Positions 23,136 through 35,810 of a DNA stretch of 35,810 nt are shown piece after piece (positions within the stretch are counted from its first letter, which is position 1; each line of letters starts with the position of its first letter). Below the pieces are notes generated by a model that did no database searches, was not told where the DNA came from, and saw only the letters and a list, made by a program, of their open reading frames with translations. Source of the DNA: Rhizaria sp. SCN 62-66 (lineage: Eukaryota); the NCBI GenBank assembly GCA_001724265.1, contig MEDY01000315.1, forward strand, positions 1 through 35,810, read 5' to 3'. The translations under genes and the position numbers were made by a program.

Positions 23136-24070
23136 AGTGTTGCAGAGGTGTTACAGTTCGAGCCTGAAAAGCAGAGCGACCCGCATCCGCGCAACATGCA
23201 CTTTGCAACTGGTCGCCGTGTGCGTGGACCACCACGCTTGACGTAAACTGAAAGTGGGTGAGATAAAATGAGTGACATTGTGCATATCGAGCAGTAAAGT
23301 AACCCTGTTGATGCGCACAGTTGAAAATACACGATGAATAGGAGCAGAGACATTAGTATTTGATTCACGAATAGATTAAAGCTGCTCATATATAGTAGGC
23401 AGTTTATTTCGTGTTGAGATTTTTCCTCGAGGCGAATACCACTTGAATATGGAACGCTCGCGTTCTCAACTGCCTGACTCTGCCCACGGTCTTCGCTGAC
23501 CGTGGCCAGTTGGCCGACTGAGCTGGCACGCGATCAGGACTGACCGAGGAGTGAAGCAAAAGCCAAGAACGCCTGATCAACGTTTATGTGTGAACCTACA
23601 ACTGATATATTTGGGGAGATACTTTTGCTTGACTATTTCCCCAAATTTGTACACCTTGACATTTCGGCTATGTGCATGTACTCGACGCGAACTTGGAAGG
23701 GCTGGCGCGTGCGCCTCGAACCGGCTCAAATCTACCGCGTTTTCGTCGTGTATATGAACACGCGCTAGGTTATTTCAGAGCTGTTGGAATATAACGGTCT
23801 CTGTTATATATTGCTTAACTGACGTCAAGATCAGAAACTGCGATTTGTGTCGTCGTTTCGTGTCTTGAATGCGCACGCGAGGACGAAACACAGTTTTGCA
23901 TTCTCTCGTTTTCCAACACTGATTTCGCGCATAATTCCCGCTCGCCTCATACTGCCTATGAATAATTCATGCTTCCATACCGCCGAAATATTACACCACG
24001 CACTTACTTCCTATTCTATCGACAATTCCACGCGTGCAATCGATTTTTCTACAGCAACCACCCCGCCAAG

Positions 24071-25210
24071 ATGTCCGCCCCTGCTGCGCTCGACACCGCG
24101 ACCCTCGAGAAGTTCCGCAAGATCACCGCCATGACCTACAAGGAGCAGGCCGTGTTCTACCTCAACGCCTTCTGGAAGGACGGCGCCGAGGCCGAGGCTG
24201 AGTCTGTCTGGAAGACCATGCACGACTTCATCGCTGTCGACCACGCCAAGGGCAAGAACGGCAACCAGCTCGACGAGGTCCTCTCTCACCACTACCTCCA
24301 GAAGGTCGGCCGCACCCTGACTGCGATCGAGCTGCGCCAGGAGCTCCGCAAGATCGACCTCGACGCCAATGGCGAGATGGCTCTTGCTGAGTACCTCATC
24401 TTCCGCGCCGGCCAGACCGGCACCCCCCGCGAGGTGATCGCTCTCATCAACAACCCCCAGGGCGGTGAGGCCAACCCCGAGGAGCTCGTGGCGGCGCAGA
24501 ACCAGCTCGACGCGCTCACCAAGGCCTTCGAGGAGCTCCAGGTGCAGCTCGACCAGCAGAAGGAGCTCGAGGCTGCGTCCCGCAAGGCCTCAGCCGATGC
24601 CGTTAAGGTCGAGGCCGCCGCCGTGGCCGCCGAGCGTGTCGCCAAGGACGCCGAGGCGCAGGTGCGCGCCGCCGAGCAGCTGGTCCGCGACGCCGAGGCC
24701 GAGGCCGTGGCTGTGGACGCCGCGCTCAAGGCCGAGCAGGACGCCTATACTGGCGAGATGGCGCGCCTCGAGGCCATCACCAAGGACGACTCCGCAGGCA
24801 TCGTCAAGCGCAACACCGCCGTCCAGGACCTCGCTCGCATGAAGGGCGCCGACCCGCTCCCTCTGCAGCGCGCCAAGATCAACCAGGAGGCGCAGGTCCG
24901 CAAGGTCCAGCGCGCGCGCAAGGCGGCCGAGGAGAAGACTGCTGAGGCCGCCGAGAAGACGGCCGAGGCCGTTGCTCAGCGCGAGCACGCCGTGCAGGCG
25001 CGCCACGCCGCCGAGGCTGCCGCAGCCGCCGCGGAGGAGCAGACCAAGGCCGTCGAGGCGCAGCTGGCCGCCGTGCAGGCGCAGACGGCCGAGGCGGAGA
25101 AGAAGCTCGAGGAGCTTAAGTCGCAGGCCGGTGTTCCCCACGGTGCCATCTGGTGGATGGAGCGCGAGATCCTCGAGAAGAAGCGCTCCCTGCCCCAGCG
25201 CTTCCAGTAA
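24071..25210 (+). CDS. ABP34-like (Dictyostelium 34-kDa Ca2+-regulated actin-bundling family) EF-hand/coiled-coil protein, 379 aa
   Basis: YKEQAVFYLNAFW, LTAIELRQELRKIDLDANGEMALAEYL (EF-hand) and the C-terminal GAIWWMEREI match recalled family motifs. Strong C/G third-position codon bias. TAA stop. Confidence 0.8.
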   Translation: MSAPAALDTATLEKFRKITAMTYKEQAVFYLNAFWKDGAEAEAESVWKTMHDFIAVDHAKGKNGNQLDEVLSHHYLQKVGRTLTAIELRQELRKIDLDANGEMALAEYLIFRAGQTGTPREVIALINNPQGGEANPEELVAAQNQLDALTKAFEELQVQLDQQKELEAASRKASADAVKVEAAAVAAERVAKDAEAQVRAAEQLVRDAEAEAVAVDAALKAEQDAYTGEMARLEAITKDDSAGIVKRNTAVQDLARMKGADPLPLQRAKINQEAQVRKVQRARKAAEEKTAEAAEKTAEAVAQREHAVQARHAAEAAAAAAEEQTKAVEAQLAAVQAQTAEAEKKLEELKSQAGVPHGAIWWMEREILEKKRSLPQRFQ

Positions 25211-25231
25211 GCAAGCCGGCTCTCGTCGCTT

Positions 25232-25259
25232 GCCACTCGCCACTCGCCACTCGCCACTC
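25232..25259 (+). repeat. (GCCACTC)x4 tandem repeat in the 3'UTR of the ABP34-like gene
   Basis: Read directly. Confidence 0.9.
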
Positions 25260-25926
25260 GTCGACCGCAATCACTGCGCGCGTGAGCGAAAACGTGCCCC
25301 AAACCAAACACTCTCTCTTTTTGTACATATATAACCCATTTTTATGATAAAACACATAATACCAATAATACAAATGATTCTTTCATTCTATTGAATGCGA
25401 TAGTGTCATCGTACCTTAACATACTTGCTGCTTAAAATGACTCGTAACGAGTCACATTCAAGCCGAGAAAGCGAGAAATTAGCACTGAGAAAAACACTGA
25501 ATGTGTATTGATTGACCGCAATTGCGGTGATGTTGAAGATGACTAATTAGGGACACGGATCAACATGAACAAGAGGATTCAGTTGTCGTGTTAAAAAAGG
25601 ACTAGATAAAAGTACATAACGAGAGCGTGGTAGCTCTCTTAGGAGTGAGGGTGCATGCGAAGGAGCGGAACTGGCTACAGACAGAAAGGGACACATAGAG
25701 GATCTAATGTGGTGAGTGATGGTAATGATATCAATCAAGAAACACATTAACAAAGCGATACTAAAGTAAACGCCACCCACTGGCCCAGTGCTATCTTGCT
25801 GTACCGATGAGATCAGCGACAGCAACACGCTGCAGTGCAACTGCATCGTTGCCGTGACCAGACCATAGAGCAAGATGACACGCTGTAAGCAAGGGAGTCG
25901 AGTCTACGAAAGAGTCTGTTTGGTTA

Positions 25927-26021
25927 CTAATAAATCAGAGTACGAATACGAATGCCCACGCAACACAGCCCTCAAGGAGCCATGCTGTCGCCTTGGAATA
26001 AATATGATTTCATCAGATTAG
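25927..26021 (-). ncRNA. Box C/D snoRNA candidate with U41/snR51-like LSU rRNA guide
   Basis: Box C (C)TGATGA at 26016-26010, box D CTGA at 25938-25935, flanking CTAAT/ATTAG complement and an internal hairpin CAGCATGGCTC/GGGCTGTGTTG. The guide TTCGTATTCGTACT (25952-25939) is antisense to the recalled LSU sequence CAGUACGAAUAC. Confidence 0.75.
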
Positions 26022-26262
26022 CACGCAAACTAGCAAGCACCATAACAGACGTGTTGATAGGAGTGATATGAGTTTGAAGCAATACGTACAATCGTTCACA
26101 TCGTACTAGCAGCATGACACGGGATATGAGCCTCATTGTTGCTGAGACATTAAATACGGCTAAACAGGAAGTGAAACAAAGGAGATAAGATACAGAATGA
26201 GTATAGATAGTTACAATGACGTCTGCCACATGTCGGTCGAGTGAAAAGAGATTGGTATTGAG

Positions 26263-26344
26263 TCAGATTAAACGCGTATATCAAACCTGCCTACACGTAT
26301 GCGGCAAGATCATAGGATGGTGCATCGTTATGGTTTATCATCAT
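26263..26344 (-). ncRNA. Box C/D snoRNA candidate with U33/snR55-like SSU rRNA guide
   Basis: Box C ATGATGA at 26344-26338 and box D CTGA at 26266-26263 (82 nt). ATGCACCATC (26325-26316), ahead of a putative D' ATGA (26313-26310), pairs with conserved SSU GGUGGUGCAU (10 bp, one G-U). Confidence 0.55.
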
Positions 26345-26471
26345 ATTAACAACAAAAGAAGGGGCACAGAGCGGACAAAAGCAAAGAAATGACAGTTTAA
26401 CTACTAGCGTACCTATATAGTATATTAGTTTGCATCTATCTTTGCTTTGTCAAAGGCGGCATGGAAACTAT

Positions 26472-26845
26472 TTACTTGGAGCCGGGGGTGGTGGTGGCGA
26501 CATAGGGCTTGAACTTGCAGGCCGTGAGGTCGGGGCAAGTGAAGGTCTTCTGGTGGAACTTGGTGTTGTCGATGAGGAAGCGACCATTTTTAGCGAAGAA
26601 ACCCATGGTGGGAGCACCACGACCTATGTTTGGAGGAAAGGTTGAGCAGAGATAGAGTGGGAGATGAGAAGCGTTGGTGGGCGAGCAGGTCCGTTGGGGT
26701 GGATTTGGGATCAAAGACCAAGCACTCGAAGGGCGCAGACAAGACAGCAAAATGACGTACCCTTGTAGAAGCTGTTGTTACCACGCTTGGAGGTGAGGTT
26801 GCCACGAACAACGTTGGCGGCGCGAGCGAGGGACGAACGGAACAT
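26472..26845 (-). CDS. MRPL41: Mitochondrial ribosomal protein mL41 (MRP-L27/MRPL41 family), 78 aa, 2 exons
   Basis: Exons 26845-26761 and 26623-26472 (GTACGT..CATAG intron) give LTSKRGNNSFYKGRGAPTMG...PDLTACKFKPYV, the family signature. TAA stop. Confidence 0.9.
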
Positions 26846-27277
26846 CGTACCTGGACCTGAGTTGGAGCGATCAGATAGGACGTTAGAAAGCGGGCAAGTG
26901 TGAGAACAAGGCAAATGTGGTTATTATTTCTACATTCTATGTTGCACAATCTACCAGCAACACGGACTAATTTGTTAAACAAATGATACAGCAGCTTAGT
27001 ATGCCTCTCCGAAGATCGTGCTCATCTCTTCTCGTGCGCCAACCCCCGCGGCCTAACTTCAGCAGGACCAAGCCAGACCGACGACTGACGGACCGAGTGA
27101 CTGTGAGAGAGCCTGTCCGTCCCGCCCTCGGTGTGTGGGCAATGAGGAGCACTTTGCAGATCGGCTCCTGGTGTTGAACAATCGTTGATTTGGTCGTCGA
27201 TTGACTCCTCGATCTAGATTGGTCTTTTGTTTCGGGCCTTTCAATTTTGTATTGTGTAGTGATCACCCCGACGTACT
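26846..27277. promoter_or_regulatory. Divergent promoter region between mL41 and the TBL1-like gene
   Basis: Start codons are head-to-head, 432 bp apart. No specific sites identified. Confidence 0.4.
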
Positions 27278-30200
27278 ATGGCTTCTCTGACGAGCGACGA
27301 GCTCAACTATGTCATCCTCCGCTACATGCTCGAGTCTGGTACGTCCCACCACTGCAATTTCCACCTCAGCCACACTGCACCACATTAGGACTTTTCTCCA
27401 TGTCATTTTTCGCAGAGCCCGCTGCCCGCCATGTGCTCACTTGTCCGTCTTCTTCCGTTCTGTGACCCCCGCGCGACATCTTGCATCGTGACTTTCGCCC
27501 GTTGCTAATTTGCACAGGCTTCGTGCACTCTGCGTACACGTTCTCGCATGAATCCTTCGTGCTCAAGTCAAACATTAACACTATGGAGGTTCCCACGGGC
27601 GCTCTCGTCTCTTTCGTGCAAAAGGGCCTTCAGTACGCCGAAATTGAGGCGCACGTGAACGAAGACGGCTCCCGCGTCGCCTGCGACTCTGAGTTCTCGC
27701 TCGTCGCGCCCCACGTCTGCCAGCCCGCCCTTCGTCGCGCCGCCGGTGCGCCGTACGACCCCCTGGACGCGGACTACGGCACGCTCGAGGTCGACGCCGC
27801 GGACCGCTACACGCTGCCCGCGCACAAGGCGCTTGCGCTGGCGTGCGCGTGGCACCCCGCGCGGCCGCTGCTCGCCACCGCGGCCGCCGACGGCACGGTG
27901 CGGCTGTGGGACTTCGGGCCCGAAGTGCTGGCCGCCGTCGCTGCGGGCGGCTCGCACGCGTTGGCCGCGCTGGGTGAGGCCGAACTGCACCGCCGCACGC
28001 TCGCCGTGCTCGCCGCCTCCCACTCGCTCACTCCCACCGCCGTCGCACCCGCGGCCGCCGCCGCCGCGATGGATGCGGTCGGCAGCGCGTGCGCCCGCGG
28101 GGCGTACACGTTCACCGTGACCCCCACGGCCCCCGCGGGCTCGGCCGCCGCCGCCGCGCTCGCCGCCGCCGCCGCCGGTGCCGACGGCATCGACATCGTC
28201 CCGACCCACACCGCCAAGCGCTCCCACACCTCTAGCTCGAGCTCTAGCGCCAGCGCTAGTGCCGACGCCGCTGCTGCTGCTGAGGCGGACGTGGTGCTGG
28301 TGCGCCCCCCCGCGGCAGCGGACGCCGTCGTCGCCCTTACCTGGCAGCCCTTTCCCTGCGGCCTCACACTCGCCAGCTCGAGCTCCAGCAGCTCTAGCTC
28401 TAGCTCTGGCGCCGCCATAGGCTCTCAGGCGTCCACGGCGGCGTCCCCGGCGGGCCAGACGTGGCTGCTGGCGCTGGCCACGGCCTCGGGCCGCGTCTGG
28501 CTCACCGCCGTCCCCGCCGCGCCCGCGCCGCCCCAGCTCCTCGGACAGCTCTCAGACTCAGCCAATGCCGGTCAGAGCGCTGCCGCTGCTGCTGCTGCTG
28601 CTGCGGCGGACACGGCTGCGGGTCTGGGTGCGTACAGCCGCCCCGCGCACAGCGGGCCCGTCACGGTGCTGCGGTTCGCCCGCGGCCCGGCCCCTGCGCA
28701 CACGCCGTTCCCCCTCCCCGCGGCTCTCGCGGCGGCCTCCAACAGCAGCACCAGCGCCACCTCAAGCAGCAGCAGCAGCAGCAGCAGCAGCAGTGCGAGT
28801 GCGAGTGAGCGTGAGGCTGGCGAGAGCGTGCTCGTCGAGGCCGAGAGCGCTGCGGACGCCGCCACCGCGCCGCTGCCCCTGCCGCTGCTGCTCACCTGCG
28901 GGCTCGACGGCCGCGCGCGCGTCTGGCGCCTGTATATCACCACGGCCAACAACAACAACAACACGATGCGTATGGCTGCCTCGGTGCGCGACATCACACT
29001 CTCCGCCAGTGCCAGCTGTAGTTCAAGTGCGAGTGCGGGCTCGAGCGCTGTGTCTGCGCAGGTGCTGGACGCTGACTGGCGCGACGAAGCCACCTTTGCC
29101 GTTGCCCTCGCCGCCACCTCTAACAGCAGCAGCAGCAGCGGCAGCGCGGGCTCCGTCGACGAGCTGTCCGCCGGCGGCGGCGCCGTTGTGATCGCGAGTG
29201 CAGCGACGTCGACCCCGCTGCTCGTCCTCTCCGCGGCACACGCCGGCGACGCCACCGCGCTACGCTGGTGTCCCCAGGGCGTGACGCTCGCCACGGGCGG
29301 CGCGGACGGCGTACTGCGGCTCTGGCGGCCGAGGCTGCCCCACGCGCGCGCAGTCGCGGCCCACATGGCGCCCGCCGTCGCAGCCTCCGCCGCCGCCGCA
29401 GTCGCTGCGGCCGCCGCGGGCGCGGGCGCGGGGGCGGGCTCGCAGGCCCTTGTCGCCGCCGCCGTCGCCGAGGCCGCCTCCGCCGCCGCTGCCCCCAACT
29501 CCACTGAGGGCGACGCCGCAGCGAGTGCTGCGGCTGAGGATCCTGCTGCGATCGCGGCCGCGGTCGCCGCGTCGGCCGCCTCGCTGCCGCCGCTGCCGCT
29601 CGTGGTGGCGCAGGCCGCGCGCGCCGCGCCTAACGCGGGTGGGCCCCGGGCCGTGCTGACGGGCCACGCGCGCGGTATCACCACTCTCCGCTTCCAGGTA
29701 TGCACTTTAACGCAATATATCTCGATTATGTGAAAAATATTCGGAAGTTCAGGAGTGTATTTCAGAATATATTTGTGATATCCACCCGTGCGGTTTATTT
29801 TGCGTCATTTCACTCACGTTTAGTGTTATTGTATGACAATTCTGTGCTTTTGCTTACTTTTTCTTCCCTCTCATAGGACCCCGGACCGCTGCCCCGGGAC
29901 GCGCTGGTCGTGGCGCCCGACTGGCGCGCTCTCGCCGCCGCCGAGCTCCGCGCCGTGGAGCGCGCCGACGCCGCTGTGGCCGAGACCGCCGCGGCCGCGA
30001 CCGCCGCCGCGGCCGCCGCTGAGGCCGCCGCCGCCGAGGCCGAGTCTACCGCTGCTACCGCCGCCGCTGAGCCGAAGCCCGAGTCAAAGACCGAGAGCAG
30101 CGGCGACTCCGCCGCCGCGACCGCGATGACTGACGACGCCGACGCCGCCACCGCCGTCGCCGCTGCTGCCGAGGCGGCGGCCGCTGCCAGCCCGGCCGCC

Positions 30201-30725
30201 GCCGCCGCGCAGGCCGCGCAGACCGCGCTGGAGTCGGCGTCCGCGGCCGCCGCCGCCGCCGCCGAGGCCGCCGCGGAGGCTGTGGAGGACCGCACGCGCC
30301 ACGGCTACGTTTCCCTGGCGATGCCGGCGCCTGTCGCCGGTCTGCGGCTTGCATCGGCGTCCTTAGACACGACTGTGCGCGTGTGGGACGCGGTGTACGG
30401 CGACTGCGCCGCGCTGCTGACGCGCCATGCGCACCCTGTGACGGCGCTGGCATGGGCGCCCGCCGTGCCCGTGGCCGTCGCCGCCGCGGCCGAGGGCGCG
30501 GACGAAGCCGCCGACGCCGACGCCGGCTTTGGGTACGGGTTCGTCTCCCCGGGACTGCTGGCGACGGTGTCGCACGAGCGCGTGCACGTCTGGGCGGTCA
30601 ACGAGGCGTCGGTGGTGCGCACGCTCCGCACGAGCGCGCCCGCCACCGACGTCGCGTGGGCCGGCGGGCAGGTCGCGTGCACGGCCACCGACGGCAGTCT
30701 CTACGTCTTTGACGGCAACGTCTGA
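27278..30725 (+). CDS. TBL1: TBL1/TBL1XR1/HOS15/Sif2-like LisH + WD40 co-repressor subunit (1,029 aa, 3 exons)
   Basis: Exons 27278-27338, 27518-29697 and 29877-30725 join in frame. LisH region MASLTSDELNYVILRYMLESGFVHSAYTF...VPTGALVSFVQKGLQYAEIE. WD repeats LLATAAADGTVRLWD, LATGGADGVLRLW and LASASLDTTVRVWD. TGA stop. Confidence 0.9.
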
Positions 30726-32496: not shown

Positions 32497-33887
32497 TCAC
32501 ACAGCCTTGCCCTTGGCGTCCGCTTTCGCAGCAGCAGCCTCAGCCTCAGCCTCGGCCTCAACCTCGGCCGCGCGCCTCTTATCGGCCTCCATAGCGCGGC
32601 GCTCCGCCTGCTCCGCCGATGCAAACACGCGCTCGAGAAGTTTAGCCGCCTCCTTCTGGCGGTCGTCGGACACGTCCAGCGGCAGCGGCGCCATCATGCG
32701 GCGGAACGCCTCGGCGTCCAGTCCGCCGCGGCCGTCGCTCGCGGCCGCGTTCTTGGCAGCGTCCGCAGCGTCGTTCGTACTCGCACTGCCAGAGTTCATG
32801 CTGTGAGAGTTGTTCGTGTTGCTGCTGTTGCTGTTGTTGTTAGAAGCTGTCTCAGCGTTGCGCGCGTACTGACGCGCCTCCTTCAGCCGCTCGCCCGCAC
32901 TCTGAGCCGCGCTGCTGCTACTGTGGTTGTGAACGTCGGCAGCGGCCGAGTCGTTGTTGACGTAGATCTCAACTGCGGCGAGCGCGGCCGCCTCTGGGGA
33001 CTGCAGCCACGCCAGCTCCTCGGGTGTCGACACGCGGCCCAGCACGACGTTGCGCTGCGGGAAGCGGCCGAAGCGCGTCACCAGGTCCAGGTGCGCGGCC
33101 GCGTAGTCGCACAGGACCGATAAATAGGGCCGGTGCACGCGGGGCGCGTTGTCGTGGAGCTCATTGAGCCGCGCCATGGCGACCTTGAGCGTGTTGAGCC
33201 GCTCCGAGCGCAGCAGCGGGAGAAAGTAGAACTGGCGCTCGACCGTGTCGAACGCCAGCGGGTGCAGGTCCTGGAACGCGGTGTAGTTTGACTGCAAGAA
33301 GAGCTCGTGCAGCATGCTGCCGCGCGGCCCGAGCCAGGACCCGACTGCGAGCGCGGGCGTGAGGCGGCCGCCGTTGGCGCGCACGGCGTCGCGCAGCTGC
33401 GCGCGAGGTAGCGCAAAGTTGAGCGTGGCCAGCGCGAGCGAGCCCTCGGGAGAGCGGTGCAGCGCGGCGTAGGGGCCATCGTCCTGGCGCGAGAGGCGCT
33501 CGGCGCGGTACTGCTCCATGTCGTCGCCGAACTCGGCGCTATATAGACACAAATAACAACACATAAAAACAAAAAGTGAGCTATCCAGAAATTTCATCGC
33601 GTAGTATATATGATAACTGAGATACATTATGTTTTACATTGACGTACACCATGTATGCGTCGATGGCAGGAGGAGGGGTGAACCAGCGTTGGCGGCAGAC
33701 AGGAGGCACGGGAGCGCCGCGGGTATAGCCTGCAGAGAGATACAAACAAAGAGTCAGATGCTGTGAGTGCATAAAAGAACAATGAACAAATGCACGCGTG
33801 TTGTGAATTATGGTTGTATAACGTACCATCAAACCAGAAGGGGAGGATACGCTGGACAAGCGTCTTGGCCCTATTAGCGCGGATCAT
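32497..33887 (-). CDS. DUF924 family protein (394 aa, 3 exons)
   Basis: Exons 33887-33827, 33729-33648 and 33538-32497 (two GTACGT introns). Motifs ILPFWF, RWF, ERQFYFLPLLRSE and HLDLVTRFGRFPQRNVVLGRVSTPEE. TGA stop. Confidence 0.85.
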
Positions 33888-34100
33888 AGCGCTACTACTC
33901 GGAGTTCAACAAGGCGCAGGGCAGTACAAATATCGATTTAGGAAGTATAATTATAGAATCATACACAATACACATTATGAAATCGAATAACAGTGCCGAG
34001 CCGCAATATTACGTTCGCATGCATGCGTAAATCAAGACCATAGTTGGGGCTGCTCAGTCTCGGCACTTGATGGTCAGACGCCGCAGCAGCAGTCAAAAGC

Positions 34101-34130
34101 ACAAACTCAAGATCTACAAACTCAAGATCT
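34101..34130 (+). repeat. (ACAAACTCAAGATCT)x2 tandem duplication upstream of the DUF924 gene
   Basis: Read directly. Confidence 0.9.
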
Positions 34131-34332
34131 AGTGATGTGTAGTGGGAAAATGAATCAAAAGTTCACGTTTATTCCAGTCGGTCTACACTGTTTAGTTCAA
34201 ATAATATCCACAATATCTAAGTATCACTCTTAAAAATCCGCGTATCTCCAACTTTGTGCACGAGTTACTCGCACGTGTGACTGTACCACACACTATCATA
34301 CTCACAACACTCCCATTTGCTCACCGTTTCTC

Positions 34333-35810
34333 CTACATGTCGCCATCACTCATCTTCTGCTGCTGTTGCAGCGACGGCGTGCCGCTGCGGTGGTGCTGGG
34401 CCGCCAAGTGCGTCGCTGGCGACGCCCCCCTGCTCCCACTCACGCTCCCACTAGCGCCAGCAGTCACGCCCGCACCGGCATTTGCGCTGTTATGCTGCTG
34501 CGCACTGCCAGCCGCGCCAGATAGCAGCGTCGGCCCACTGCTCGCGCCCGCGGCTGCGCCAGAGGAGAAGCCGTGACCCGCGCCGGCCGCAGCGCGCGGC
34601 GTGCCTTTGCGCTTCGCACCACCGCCACAGGCCGACAGTGCTGCGCCGGACAGAGTGGCCGAGCCGGGGCCCGAACCAGGCCCTGGGCCAACGCCGGAGC
34701 CCGCCGTAACCGACAGCGCAAGCCCCAACCCTCCGCCAACAGTGACACCGGCATTTTGACCGGCGCTGGCACTGGCGCCGAGGTTGCTGCCGCTGCCGCT
34801 GTGGCCGAGCGGCGCTGGCGGCGTCAGCGGCCTGGCCCCGGCCCCGCGGCCCCGGGGCCCCGCCGCCGTGCCCATCGGCGTCATGACGGTGAGCGAAGAC
34901 TGGCCAGACAGGGCGCCGACCGCGAGCCCCGGCTGCGGGCCTGAGGCCAAGGGGCTGGAGACAGCGCTCGAGGCCGCACTCGACGCCGCGCTGCAGTAGT
35001 TGTAGTCATAGCCGCCGCCGTAGCCTGCTGCGTAATTATTCCGGTGGGTCAGATTCGAGTTGCCGCCGCTGCCGCCGCTGCTGCCGCCGCCCCCGCCGCC
35101 CCCACCAGACTGGTGGTGCAGCGTTGGCACTGGCGTCGCAACAGATGCGCCGCCGCCGCTGCCAGCCGTGGGGCCAAGCGCCGCCCAGTGCCCGTGACCG
35201 TGAACGCCATGCGTTCCGTGACTGTGGCCGTGGGTGAGCGCGCTGTGGCCGCTGTTATGGCGCGTGGAGCGCGGCGAGTGCGTGACCGAGTGCGCGATCG
35301 AATTGGCAGGGGCACCGCTGGCGCTGGCGCTGCCGCTGCCGGCGGGGGCGGGCGAAGCCACAGCGGTCACAATCGGCGGGGGCGCGGAGCCCAGCAGTGA
35401 GCCCGAGCTTGAACCACCTGAGCCACTCGAACCGGAGCCAGAAACGGAGCCAGATGCAGAGGATGATGCGGGGATGACGGAGGCCGCCGCAGCCGCCGCA
35501 GCTGCGTGTGCCGCCGCCGTGGCCGCGCCCGCCGCGCTGCCCGTCAGCAGCATCGGCGTCGCGCTGTGGCTGTGCGGGCCGTGACCGTGGCCGTGGCCGT
35601 GGCTGTGACCGTGGTGCTGCGGCTGCGCGGGCGCGTGGCCCTGGTGGCTATGGTGGTGCGCCGCCGCGGCCGCCGCGGCCGCGGCCGCCGCCATCGCCGC
35701 GACCGCGGCCGTGCTTGCGTCAGCCTTGGCGGCGCGCTCGCGGCCGCGCGGGGTCGAGGCCGCGCCCGCGCTGCCGCCGCCGTGGCGCTCCGACGCCGCC
35801 GCCGCGGCCA
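34333..35810 (-). CDS. 3' part of a Gly/Ser/Ala/His-rich low-complexity protein, truncated by the window edge
   Basis: The frame is open from the window end to TAG at 34335-34333, then GAG AAA CGG TGA (to 34321). No domain recognised. Confidence 0.7.
   Translation of the reverse strand, partial: AAAAASERHGGGSAGAASTPRGRERAAKADASTAAVAAMAAAAAAAAAAAHHHSHQGHAPAQPQHHGHSHGHGHGHGPHSHSATPMLLTGSAAGAATAAAHAAAAAAAASVIPASSSASGSVSGSGSSGSGGSSSGSLLGSAPPPIVTAVASPAPAGSGSASASGAPANSIAHSVTHSPRSTRHNSGHSALTHGHSHGTHGVHGHGHWAALGPTAGSGGGASVATPVPTLHHQSGGGGGGGGSSGGSGGNSNLTHRNNYAAGYGGGYDYNYCSAASSAASSAVSSPLASGPQPGLAVGALSGQSSLTVMTPMGTAAGPRGRGAGARPLTPPAPLGHSGSGSNLGASASAGQNAGVTVGGGLGLALSVTAGSGVGPGPGSGPGSATLSGAALSACGGGAKRKGTPRAAAGAGHGFSSGAAAGASSGPTLLSGAAGSAQQHNSANAGAGVTAGASGSVSGSRGASPATHLAAQHHRSGTPSLQQQQKMSDGDM

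Follow-up and report, generated by a model that had tools for sequence, protein, structure and literature searches.

In Rhizaria sp. SCN 62-66, the pre-mRNA of the mitoribosomal protein gene mL41 is probably spliced past its stop codon and hosts box C/D snoRNAs in at least two introns of its tail, a reading to which we assign a probability of roughly 70%. The window analysed here is the whole 35,810-nt stretch of DNA (contig MEDY01000315.1, C315), part of the eukaryotic 34.9-Mb assembly (G000) that was searched throughout.

In the proposed mechanism, the pre-mRNA of mL41, a short housekeeping gene, would continue beyond the stop and contain two or more non-coding introns, with a single box C/D snoRNA ~70 nt past the donor of each. 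The spliceosome would excise these introns, snoRNP proteins would bind boxes C and D, and trimming would produce mature guides of ~85-90 nt. The first of the two snoRNAs (unit 1) would direct 2'-O-methylation of the SSU rRNA uridine corresponding to yeast U1269/human U1326, and the second (unit 2) would probably guide another rRNA site, the best candidate being a C in the SSU rRNA 5' domain. The role of mL41 would be to provide a steady promoter and splice sites, and a special mitochondrial link is not needed. We infer transcription, continuity with mL41, splicing, snoRNP assembly and methylation, the splice-and-trim route following from the anatomy of the tail together with the established biogenesis of intronic snoRNAs.

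The mL41 gene

Read from the sequence of the window, mL41 is a two-exon gene on the minus strand with a 78-aa product.

26761..26845, minus strand: mL41 coding exon 1, with the ATG at 26845 (sequence reading)
26624..26760, minus strand: mL41 coding intron, 137 nt, GTACGT...TAG (splicing restores the frame)
26472..26623, minus strand: mL41 coding exon 2, through the stop TAA at 26474-26472 (Pfam and PDB matches)
26413..26471, minus strand: mL41 3'UTR between the stop and the first donor, 59 nt (sequence reading)

The product matches Pfam PF09809 at 26.5 bits (cut-off 25) and 11 PDB sequences at E<=1 (best E 4.6e-4), which are named mL41, L41 or L27 except for one that carries a locus id. The gene region is single-copy in the assembly, and a protein search with the product returned its own protein alone (1 of 1 candidates). 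The coding intron contains no snoRNA boxes and has a branch-like CTCAT 41 nt before its acceptor. The initial annotation had named the gene mL41 and placed a strong donor (AG/GTACGC, at 26412) 59 nt past its stop; the identity, the TAA stop and the donor are all found in the sequence.

Upstream of the gene lies a promoter-like motif, in a region common to mL41 and a divergently oriented neighbour.

27097..27107, plus strand: promoter-like motif GTGACTGTGAG, in the upstream region common to mL41 and the divergent WD40 gene

The copy at 27097 is the sole one within 25000-27600, with none in the mL41 tail. Two non-coding snoRNA hosts (on C255 and C615) have the same motif 138-140 nt ahead of their first donor, and it may act as a promoter. 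It is absent before a third non-coding host (on C222), so its absence from the mL41 tail is weak evidence.

The first predicted 3'UTR intron and a U33/snR55-type unit

The first predicted intron of the tail (intron 1) has splice signals at both ends, including a branch-like CTCAT 38 nt before the acceptor at 26160.

26160..26412, minus strand: predicted 3'UTR intron 1, 253 nt, donor GTACGC, pyrimidine tract, TAG (splice signals)
26263..26344, minus strand: unit 1, predicted box C/D snoRNA of U33/snR55 type (boxes, guide register, conservation)
26344-26338, minus strand: box C of unit 1
26325-26316, minus strand: guide of unit 1
26313-26310, minus strand: D' box of unit 1, ATGA
26266-26263, minus strand: box D of unit 1
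26090..26159, minus strand: predicted non-coding exon, 70 nt (stops in three frames of the spliced tail)

Unit 1 has ATGATGA as box C and CTGA as box D, and in both units the C-to-D spacing falls in the 50-100 nt expected of box C/D snoRNAs. In its cassette the donor-to-C distance is 69 nt, the unit measures 81-82 nt and the D-to-acceptor distance is 103 nt, and both distances agree with those of frame-verified coding-intron cassettes of the same genome (described below). The guide forms a 10-bp duplex (1 G-U) with the organism's own SSU rRNA, which puts its fifth base opposite the U at L001:4822, position 7780 of C706; a duplex score of this size is common by chance, being reached by 69 of 300 random guides. 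The guide register is that of Plasmodium PFS1, and positions 5-12 are identical save for one C/T. In runs X1 and X3, from two studies, contigs from a more distant relative match the tail within 26270-26325 only (in X1 a contig of 56 nt with 4 differences) and then diverge from the window, which marks the core of unit 1 as a conservation island. A genome search with SNORD33 (RF00133), in which 60 of ~1,511 candidates were scored, gave one other locus (E 3.07) and did not return unit 1. By prediction, unit 1 is a box C/D snoRNA-like element with a U33/snR55-type guide for SSU rRNA.

The Um1326/Um1269 site lies in SSU helix 34 (PMC5464676) and is common to yeast snR55, human U33, Arabidopsis snoR34 and Dictyostelium CD29 (PMC3511168, PMC8817022), while Plasmodium PFS1 is listed as a Um1269 guide (PMC2656528). 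Unit 1 shares its guide register on SSU helix 34 with U33/SNORD33, snR55, snoR34, CD29 and PFS1. Unlike PFS1, which guides from the D box, it uses the D' box (ATGA), with a 10-bp duplex and no Rfam score.

The exon first proposed between 26159 and 26090 has the boundaries claimed for it, as an acceptor ending at 26160 and a donor GTACGT at 26089 are both present as splice signals. The 82-nt C-to-D unit ascribed to each of the first two introns is likewise there, boxes included, if counting begins with box C's first base.

The second predicted 3'UTR intron and the end of the tail

The second predicted intron (intron 2) opens with a strong donor and contains unit 2, which has an internal hairpin.

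25883..26089, minus strand: predicted 3'UTR intron 2 in its shortest reading, 207 nt, donor GTACGT (strong donor)
25935..26016, minus strand: unit 2, box C/D snoRNA candidate with internal hairpin (boxes, spacing)
26016-26010, minus strand: box C of unit 2
25938-25935, minus strand: box D of unit 2

Box C of unit 2 is CTGATGA, its first base off the consensus RUGAUGA, and box D is CTGA; the donor-to-C distance is 74 nt and the unit measures 81-82 nt. The best guide (25951-25941) forms 11 bp with 2 G-U against the SSU C at L001:1862, position 4820 of C706, with a score that 38 of 300 random guides reach (~13%). Two other pairings, 12 bp with 3 G-U to SSU (D' GCGA) and 10 bp with 2 G-U to U2, are near chance level. 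None of the unit 2 guides has a target site tied to a published site, and the relatives' contigs listed include no conserved counterpart. As a snoRNA, unit 2 is less sure than unit 1. Complementarity between the tail and U6 (9-11 bp at 26121, 26025 and 25883) was rejected, its duplex energy not being significant (8 of 100 resamplings as good, over 25935-25675).

Intron 2 may end at 25883 or at 25675, each at a little under even odds, with 25602 as a distinctly improbable third choice. In a small acceptor model, 25883 scores 2.9, 26160 scores 6.5 and 25675 scores 7.6; the model derives from 26-38 automatically called introns and is noisy, also giving high scores to 25841 (10.9) and 25799 (8.2). 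The acceptor at 25883 has an AG 21 nt upstream, and an AG 12-30 nt upstream is found in just 2 of 26 automatically called introns. It also has no branch-like motif with a pyrimidine start at the usual 38-49 nt. Further downstream lie a better-formed acceptor and a second possible box D.

25675..25720, minus strand: best-formed downstream acceptor, with branch-like CTCAC 38 nt upstream, pyrimidine tract and TAG
25813..25816, minus strand: further CTGA, possible alternative box D of unit 2 (speculative)

Measured from box D of unit 2, the acceptor distance would be 52 nt for 25883 and 260 nt for 25675; neither value falls within 101-182 nt. The initial annotation had extended the tail with a third exon from 25882 to ~25781. 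Its proposed donor (GTGGGT, 25780) is not among the 40 commonest candidate donors, and there is no GTAYGY donor between 25882 and 25425. The weakness of 25883 as an acceptor, the better quality of 25675 and the lack of a typical donor after 25882 make this exon doubtful, and it may not exist.

A longer intron 2 is a tentative reading, somewhat less likely than not and compatible with post-stop hosting by mL41. The intron would run from 26089 to 25675 (or 25602) with no third exon, and would hold either a single ~205-nt box C/D RNA, with the CTGA at 25816-25813 as its end, or else unit 2 together with a second small RNA. It is favoured by the branch-like motif and better acceptor score of 25675, by the lack of a GTAYGY donor over 25882-25425, and by the 138 nt from the CTGA at 25813 to 25675, which is within the usual range. 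A contig of run X2 spans 25816-26030, and the non-coding host on C255 has longer units that contain an internal CTGA (SNORD15-like, 133 nt, 26.5 bits). Against these points, no significant guide precedes the CTGA at 25816-25813, and the X2 contig may be random DNA and starts ~9 nt upstream of the expected trimmed RNA. At 415 nt the intron would also exceed all 38 automatically called introns (109-376 nt, introns to ~400 nt having been sought).

A second small RNA in such an intron would correspond to a doubtful H/ACA-like fold.

25707..25874, minus strand: hairpin-hinge-hairpin-ACA fold, H/ACA-like (doubtful)

This is the sole H/ACA signature in the 1,100-nt tail (null 3-4%; fold z -1.4), with two hairpins, an H box (ANANNA) and an ACA all present. 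Its targets are at chance level, hairpin 2 being equalled by 7 of 40 shuffles, and the best target of hairpin 2 is what we take to be a pseudouridine site of human 28S rRNA, for which the literature searched gave no confirmation and which is not counted as evidence. A near-identical strain in run X3 changes the invariant H-box base at 25792 and a stem base at 25853, which lowers the H/ACA reading of 25707-25874 and counts against a second small RNA.

Chance expectation and Rfam

It is extremely improbable that the units are dead copies or motifs arisen by chance in A/T-rich DNA between genes. Second-order Markov resampling of the 1,071-nt tail yields two donor-C-D arrangements in 15 of 20,000 cases, and unit 1 combines the PFS1 register with a conservation island in relatives. 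What speaks for chance is the Rfam result, together with the genome-wide pattern matches, ~1/4 of which are expected by chance and many of which proved spurious when inspected. The Rfam scan of the window gave 0 matches at cut-off and, below it, alignments of 14-15 bits to C/D families that are at chance level; neither unit reaches any Rfam cut-off. A metagenome pattern scan yielded 9 loci, of which one, L009, is identical to the window and eight are chance matches.

Housing of snoRNAs in this genome

The genome was surveyed with five donor-C-D pattern searches that use canonical donors, boxes and spacings, with the reversed sequence as control. These gave 44 v 12, 25 v 2, 19 v 6, 28 v 6 and 11 v 4 matches (genome v control, counts including duplicates). 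All matches were inspected by script and many also by eye, and most were judged chance; the census does not capture H/ACA RNAs, nor units with variant boxes or donors of other types. Matches attributed to chance on inspection include L032, L033, L035, L037, L040-L045, L047-L049, L051-L061, L063, L065, L068-L073, most of L075-L092 and L106-L161, while L034, L036, L123 and L128 were assigned neither to chance nor to cassettes. Among the pattern-found cassettes, one on C255 passes the Rfam cut-off for SNORD24 (42.6 bits, cut-off 41), and others fall under theirs for snR54 (44.6, cut-off 50) and U18 (42.5 and 35.6, cut-off 47). Such Rfam matches indicate that the pattern finds real snoRNAs. A snR38-type guide pattern gave 0 matches, a U14-type guide pattern gave 3, none with U14 anatomy, and U5 was looked for and not found.

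Seven cassettes lie in open frames where splicing restores the frame (L039, L046, L050, L062, L064, L066 and L067), with donor-to-C distances of 60-92 nt, units of 71-82 nt and D-to-acceptor distances of 101-182 nt. By Pfam, the coding-intron hosts comprise two DnaJ genes and one NSA2-like gene; judged by their translations, others presumably encode RPS4, TFIIH p52, Pol I's largest subunit and a mitochondrial-type DnaJ. L038, L079, L099 and L135 are additional likely cases of this kind, and the snoRNA hosts of this genome include other genes for mitochondrial proteins. Dedicated non-coding hosts are found on C255, C222, C31 and C615, of which the C255 host shows a box C after each of 9 donors and, for 8 of these, a box D in range. 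Hosting in predicted introns past a stop is found in mL41 (2 cassettes), in the uS19m gene on C352 (3 cassettes) and after a small open frame on C490 (1 cassette), the last read by eye, with its donor 255 nt past the stop. Nop-domain genes are encoded in the genome. The earlier proposal of box C/D hosting by the mL41 tail fits this setting, as its units are snoRNA-like and sit in intron cassettes of the type used across the genome.

The rDNA on C706 is very divergent, with many group I-like introns that were removed by coordinates before guide pairing. It is taken to be this organism's rDNA, since guides of other cassettes pair there at 10-16 bp.

The sister locus uS19m and the probable continuity of the transcript

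The uS19m gene on C352, in the region 33300-34900, matches PF00203 as a bacterial-type S19, and its best PDB matches are mitochondrial uS19m. (Three further S19-family matches sit at contig ends.) The coding intron of uS19m carries a U18-type snoRNA unit, and its tail holds three more cassettes, with junctions 15, 70 and 159 nt after the stop. The units alternate between two duplicated types, such that the coding-intron snoRNA is repeated past the stop. The 15 nt between stop and donor leave no space for a promoter, which argues that this genome hangs snoRNA introns on coding messages. Given uS19m, post-stop snoRNA hosting appears to be a habit of this genome.

GAS5/UHG-type genes are non-coding snoRNA hosts. 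The mL41 tail resembles them in its short non-coding exons between snoRNA introns and differs from them in that the array sits on an intact single-copy coding gene. The mL41 snoRNAs could still be intronic in a separate host of this type, with a promoter inside the end of mL41 and an mRNA that ends in the 59-nt UTR. The existence of dedicated non-coding hosts in this genome, an A/T-rich end of the 59-nt UTR that could be a poly(A) signal, and the initial annotation of the Drosophila minifly/Nop60B (mfl) tail in this way (PMC1821038) speak for such an arrangement. We regard it as improbable, given that the spot 138-140 nt before the donor falls in the mL41 coding exon, with no motif there, and that uS19m has 15 nt from stop to donor and repeats its coding-intron snoRNA past the stop. 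Most likely, mL41 and the tail units share one transcript; the space between stop and donor has no room for a promoter and no promoter-like motif, and uS19m provides a sister case.

A very improbable variant is that the units are cut by an endonuclease from an unspliced 3' extension, with the splice-like signals unused, in the manner of polycistronic snoRNA units of yeast or plants. The single RNA-library contig (from X2) is unspliced, and a snoRNA inside the Plasmodium RPL7a mRNA's 3'UTR is known (PMC2656528). On the other side, each unit lies behind a consensus donor at the frame-verified distance, and cassette 1 has a full acceptor.

RNA-library contigs

All contigs of four runs (X1-X4, low depth) were compared with the window at 88% likeness. 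Run X4 covers almost none of the stretch, and uncovered parts of X1, X2 and X4 were not counted as evidence. The junctions at 26413/26159 and 26090/25882 that had been predicted for the tail did not appear, as no joint at a 3'UTR junction is seen in any of the four runs (contigs alone, at low depth). In the poly(A) run X2, the contig at 25816-26030 (215 nt, depth 2.6) crosses the acceptor at 25883 unspliced. The X2 depth table suggests cover within the mL41 coding intron, in a run whose cover is patchy and low, so that this contig may be DNA or pre-mRNA. It counts against the acceptor at 25883 if it is mature RNA and is uninformative if it is DNA. For the near-identical X3 strain (11 substitutions over 2,120 nt), the listed substitutions all fall outside the two units, a count too small to show selection on them.

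Possible nonsense-mediated decay and choice of isoform

Under the mammalian rule, junctions as far past the stop as 59 and 129 nt would mark a message for decay (PMC5238794, PMC6173133). UPF1 (228.5 bits) and MAGOH (140.1 bits) are encoded in this genome, as is a protein that resembles human UPF2 (E 8.4e-16) and was reached through MIF4G after a blank UPF2 Pfam search. The Pfam search for UPF3 was also blank, which proves nothing, as UPF2 was found in spite of the same result.

As a sub-case of post-stop hosting by mL41, most of its mRNA may end early or be stable, and a minor, long spliced isoform may release the snoRNAs and then undergo NMD. The junctions at 59 and 129 nt in mL41 and at 15, 70 and 159 nt in uS19m, together with the encoded UPF1, MAGOH and UPF2-like protein, are in keeping with this. 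In human, NMD targets show an enrichment of snoRNA hosts (PMC5238794), and in Drosophila mfl alternative poly(A) sites are used in this manner, releasing different snoRNA sets from 3'UTR introns (PMC1821038). We nevertheless consider the sub-case unlikely. A poly(A) site before the first uS19m junction is hardly possible, the UPF3 search is uninformative, and the EJC-dependent rule is not universal, this mode of NMD being uncharacterised or absent in many lineages (PMC6173133).

Comparison with known systems

The closest likeness to the mL41 layout is Drosophila mfl, a coding gene with box C/D snoRNAs, one per 3'UTR intron, whose tail an initial annotation had treated as an independent non-coding host, dUhg 6 (PMC1821038). 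In contrast to mL41, the mfl product is a snoRNP enzyme, Northern blots revealed both the isoforms and the small RNAs, and the D-to-acceptor distance is ~70 nt; the mL41 host is mitoribosomal and has a spacing of ~100-125 nt, predicted from the sequence. A nuclear mitoribosomal-protein gene that hosts an intronic snoRNA is likewise known from human SNORA58 in MRPL3, a choice of host explained by broad expression and 'constrained drift' (PMC3511168). Unlike the mL41 units, SNORA58 is an H/ACA snoRNA in one copy, and the available part of that source does not describe it as post-stop. Among protists, Plasmodium PFS9 (in the RPL7a 3'UTR) and PFS10 homologues (downstream of a stop) are box C/D snoRNAs in or beside a 3'UTR (PMC2656528). 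In contrast to mL41, RPL7a is a cytosolic host, and the accessible text of that source reports no intron around PFS9. The initial annotation had implied that such a layout and host are rare, which is not supported, as both the mfl 3'UTR-intron clusters (PMC1821038) and SNORA58 in MRPL3 (PMC3511168) were already described, and other genes for mitochondrial proteins host snoRNAs in this genome. Searches of the Creative Commons PubMed Central and bioRxiv literature turned up neither 3'UTR-intron snoRNAs on a mitoribosomal gene nor such snoRNAs from a rhizarian.

The snoRNAs are ordinary, the layout is known from mfl and mitoribosomal hosts are known from MRPL3; what deserves further attention is that the arrangement recurs in two mitoribosomal genes. 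In a bolder reading, which we consider quite unlikely as a whole, this lineage would have repeatedly built snoRNA arrays on mitoribosomal gene tails (two of three post-stop hosts, a small count), with guides made in step with mitoribosome genes, and either the 50-nt rule would fail here or NMD and poly(A) choice would act as a switch; its boldest form includes the ~205-nt RNA in intron 2. If this were true, junctions 59-159 nt past stops would be carried by essential single-copy messages despite UPF1, UPF2 and MAGOH, and the switch would be between making a mitochondrial protein and making snoRNAs alone.

The mL41 and uS19m tails offer a simple natural test of whether post-stop junctions trigger decay in this lineage. 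They also bear on host choice, whether by steady expression alone or by co-ordination of two ribosome systems. Annotation of such genomes should look past stop codons, and Rfam misses both mL41 units. It is the host that matters, not the snoRNAs: a coding gene with a guide-carrying non-coding tail, found in two mitoribosomal genes of one little-studied protist. As for the lineage of this protist, its ubiquitin genes start with two extra residues ahead of the usual start, a feature typical of cercozoans and to be taken as a lead.

Genes with snoRNA cassettes beyond the stop codon

Like mL41, the uS19m gene of Rhizaria sp. SCN 62-66 carries snoRNA cassettes (donor plus C/D unit) after its stop codon, and a small open frame is a possible third host of this kind (C, contig of assembly GCA_001724265.1; L, inspected locus).

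C352:33300-34900 (L101), minus strand: uS19m, nuclear gene for a mitochondrial protein, with four box C/D cassettes
C490:300-1300 (L103), minus strand: small open frame of three exons and ~68 residues, read by eye

The uS19m cassettes are arranged A-B-A-B, i.e. two types, both duplicated; the U18-type cassette inside a coding intron is followed by three beyond the stop. The C490 product, in the by-eye reading, is cysteine-rich and hydrophobic, and its cassette (with a guide of 11 bp) lies 255 nt past the stop.

The mL41 locus

Window 26857-27060, minus strand: well-formed acceptor ending at 26857, 12 nt 5' of the mL41 ATG, and preceded by a branch-like CTCAC at a distance of 44 nt
Window 27278-29733 and 30126-30725, plus strand: WD40 gene starting at 27278, head-to-head with mL41
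Window 23969-25210, plus strand: convergent neighbour with PF18060 (F-actin-bundling C-terminal domain)

Because a well-formed acceptor ends at 26857, the sequence suggests that mL41 has a 5'UTR intron ending there. No GTAYGY donor was found upstream of this acceptor on the minus strand of 26857-27060; the donor of the putative intron may be of a GC or weak type. The motif GTGAC[C/T]GTGAG recurs, facing one way or the other: it lies at window position 27097, precedes several other housekeeping genes and snoRNA hosts (L024, L028, L064, L100, L101, L150), and is likely to be a promoter element in this organism.

The WD40 neighbour, which we take to be TBL1-like, still has its start next to that of mL41 in a contig of a relative (joint 26853/27278) from X3, a run stored as contigs, and the PF18060 gene is well covered by RNA contigs from relatives.

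Three stretches of the mL41 tail (26121-26111, 26025-26015 and 25883-25875, minus strand) are complementary to the organism's own U6 over 9-11 bp, without significance where tested; two of them, in exon 2 and at 25882, have a common 8-nt word, perhaps an old duplication.

rDNA and ubiquitin genes

C706:4459-17666 (L001, L003): A/T-rich, very divergent rDNA
C3:11200-14100 (L016, L023), with further copies at L019 and L020: ubiquitin genes

The rDNA contains four insertions in the SSU and at least seven in the LSU, all resembling group I introns; the length of some would leave room for homing endonuclease genes. Ubiquitin is encoded as a single unit, extended by two additional N-terminal residues and a C-terminal tail of three residues, and no polyubiquitin junction was seen at these four loci. 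Some copies have internal deletions, and assembly collapse is possible.

Non-coding hosts and coding introns

C255:7100-10900 (L100), minus strand: non-coding, spliced, dedicated snoRNA host with nine donors, each followed by a box C
C222:1-1300 (L102), minus strand: non-coding host whose array continues off the contig end
C31:115100-116100 (L104), plus strand: non-coding host
C615:5400-5900 (L150), minus strand: non-coding host
C24:98955-99090 (L036): coding intron of 139 nt, its last 80 nt a candidate C/D unit

The C255 host contains two copies of SNORD24 (one above the Rfam cut-off), a 133-nt SNORD15-like unit and variant box C sequences (TGAAGA); the C615 unit has a 10-bp pairing with the SSU 3' region. 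The C24 candidate, either a real snoRNA or a chance match, has a perfect 11-bp guide to the LSU in the U38/snR61-type register (compared with the Plasmodium snoRNA PFS6), and the acceptor lies just 3 nt beyond its D box. Two unrelated genes, on C445 (L064) and C614 (L099), each have a coding intron with a snoRNA unit, and the two units look similar, a sign that snoRNAs have moved from host to host.
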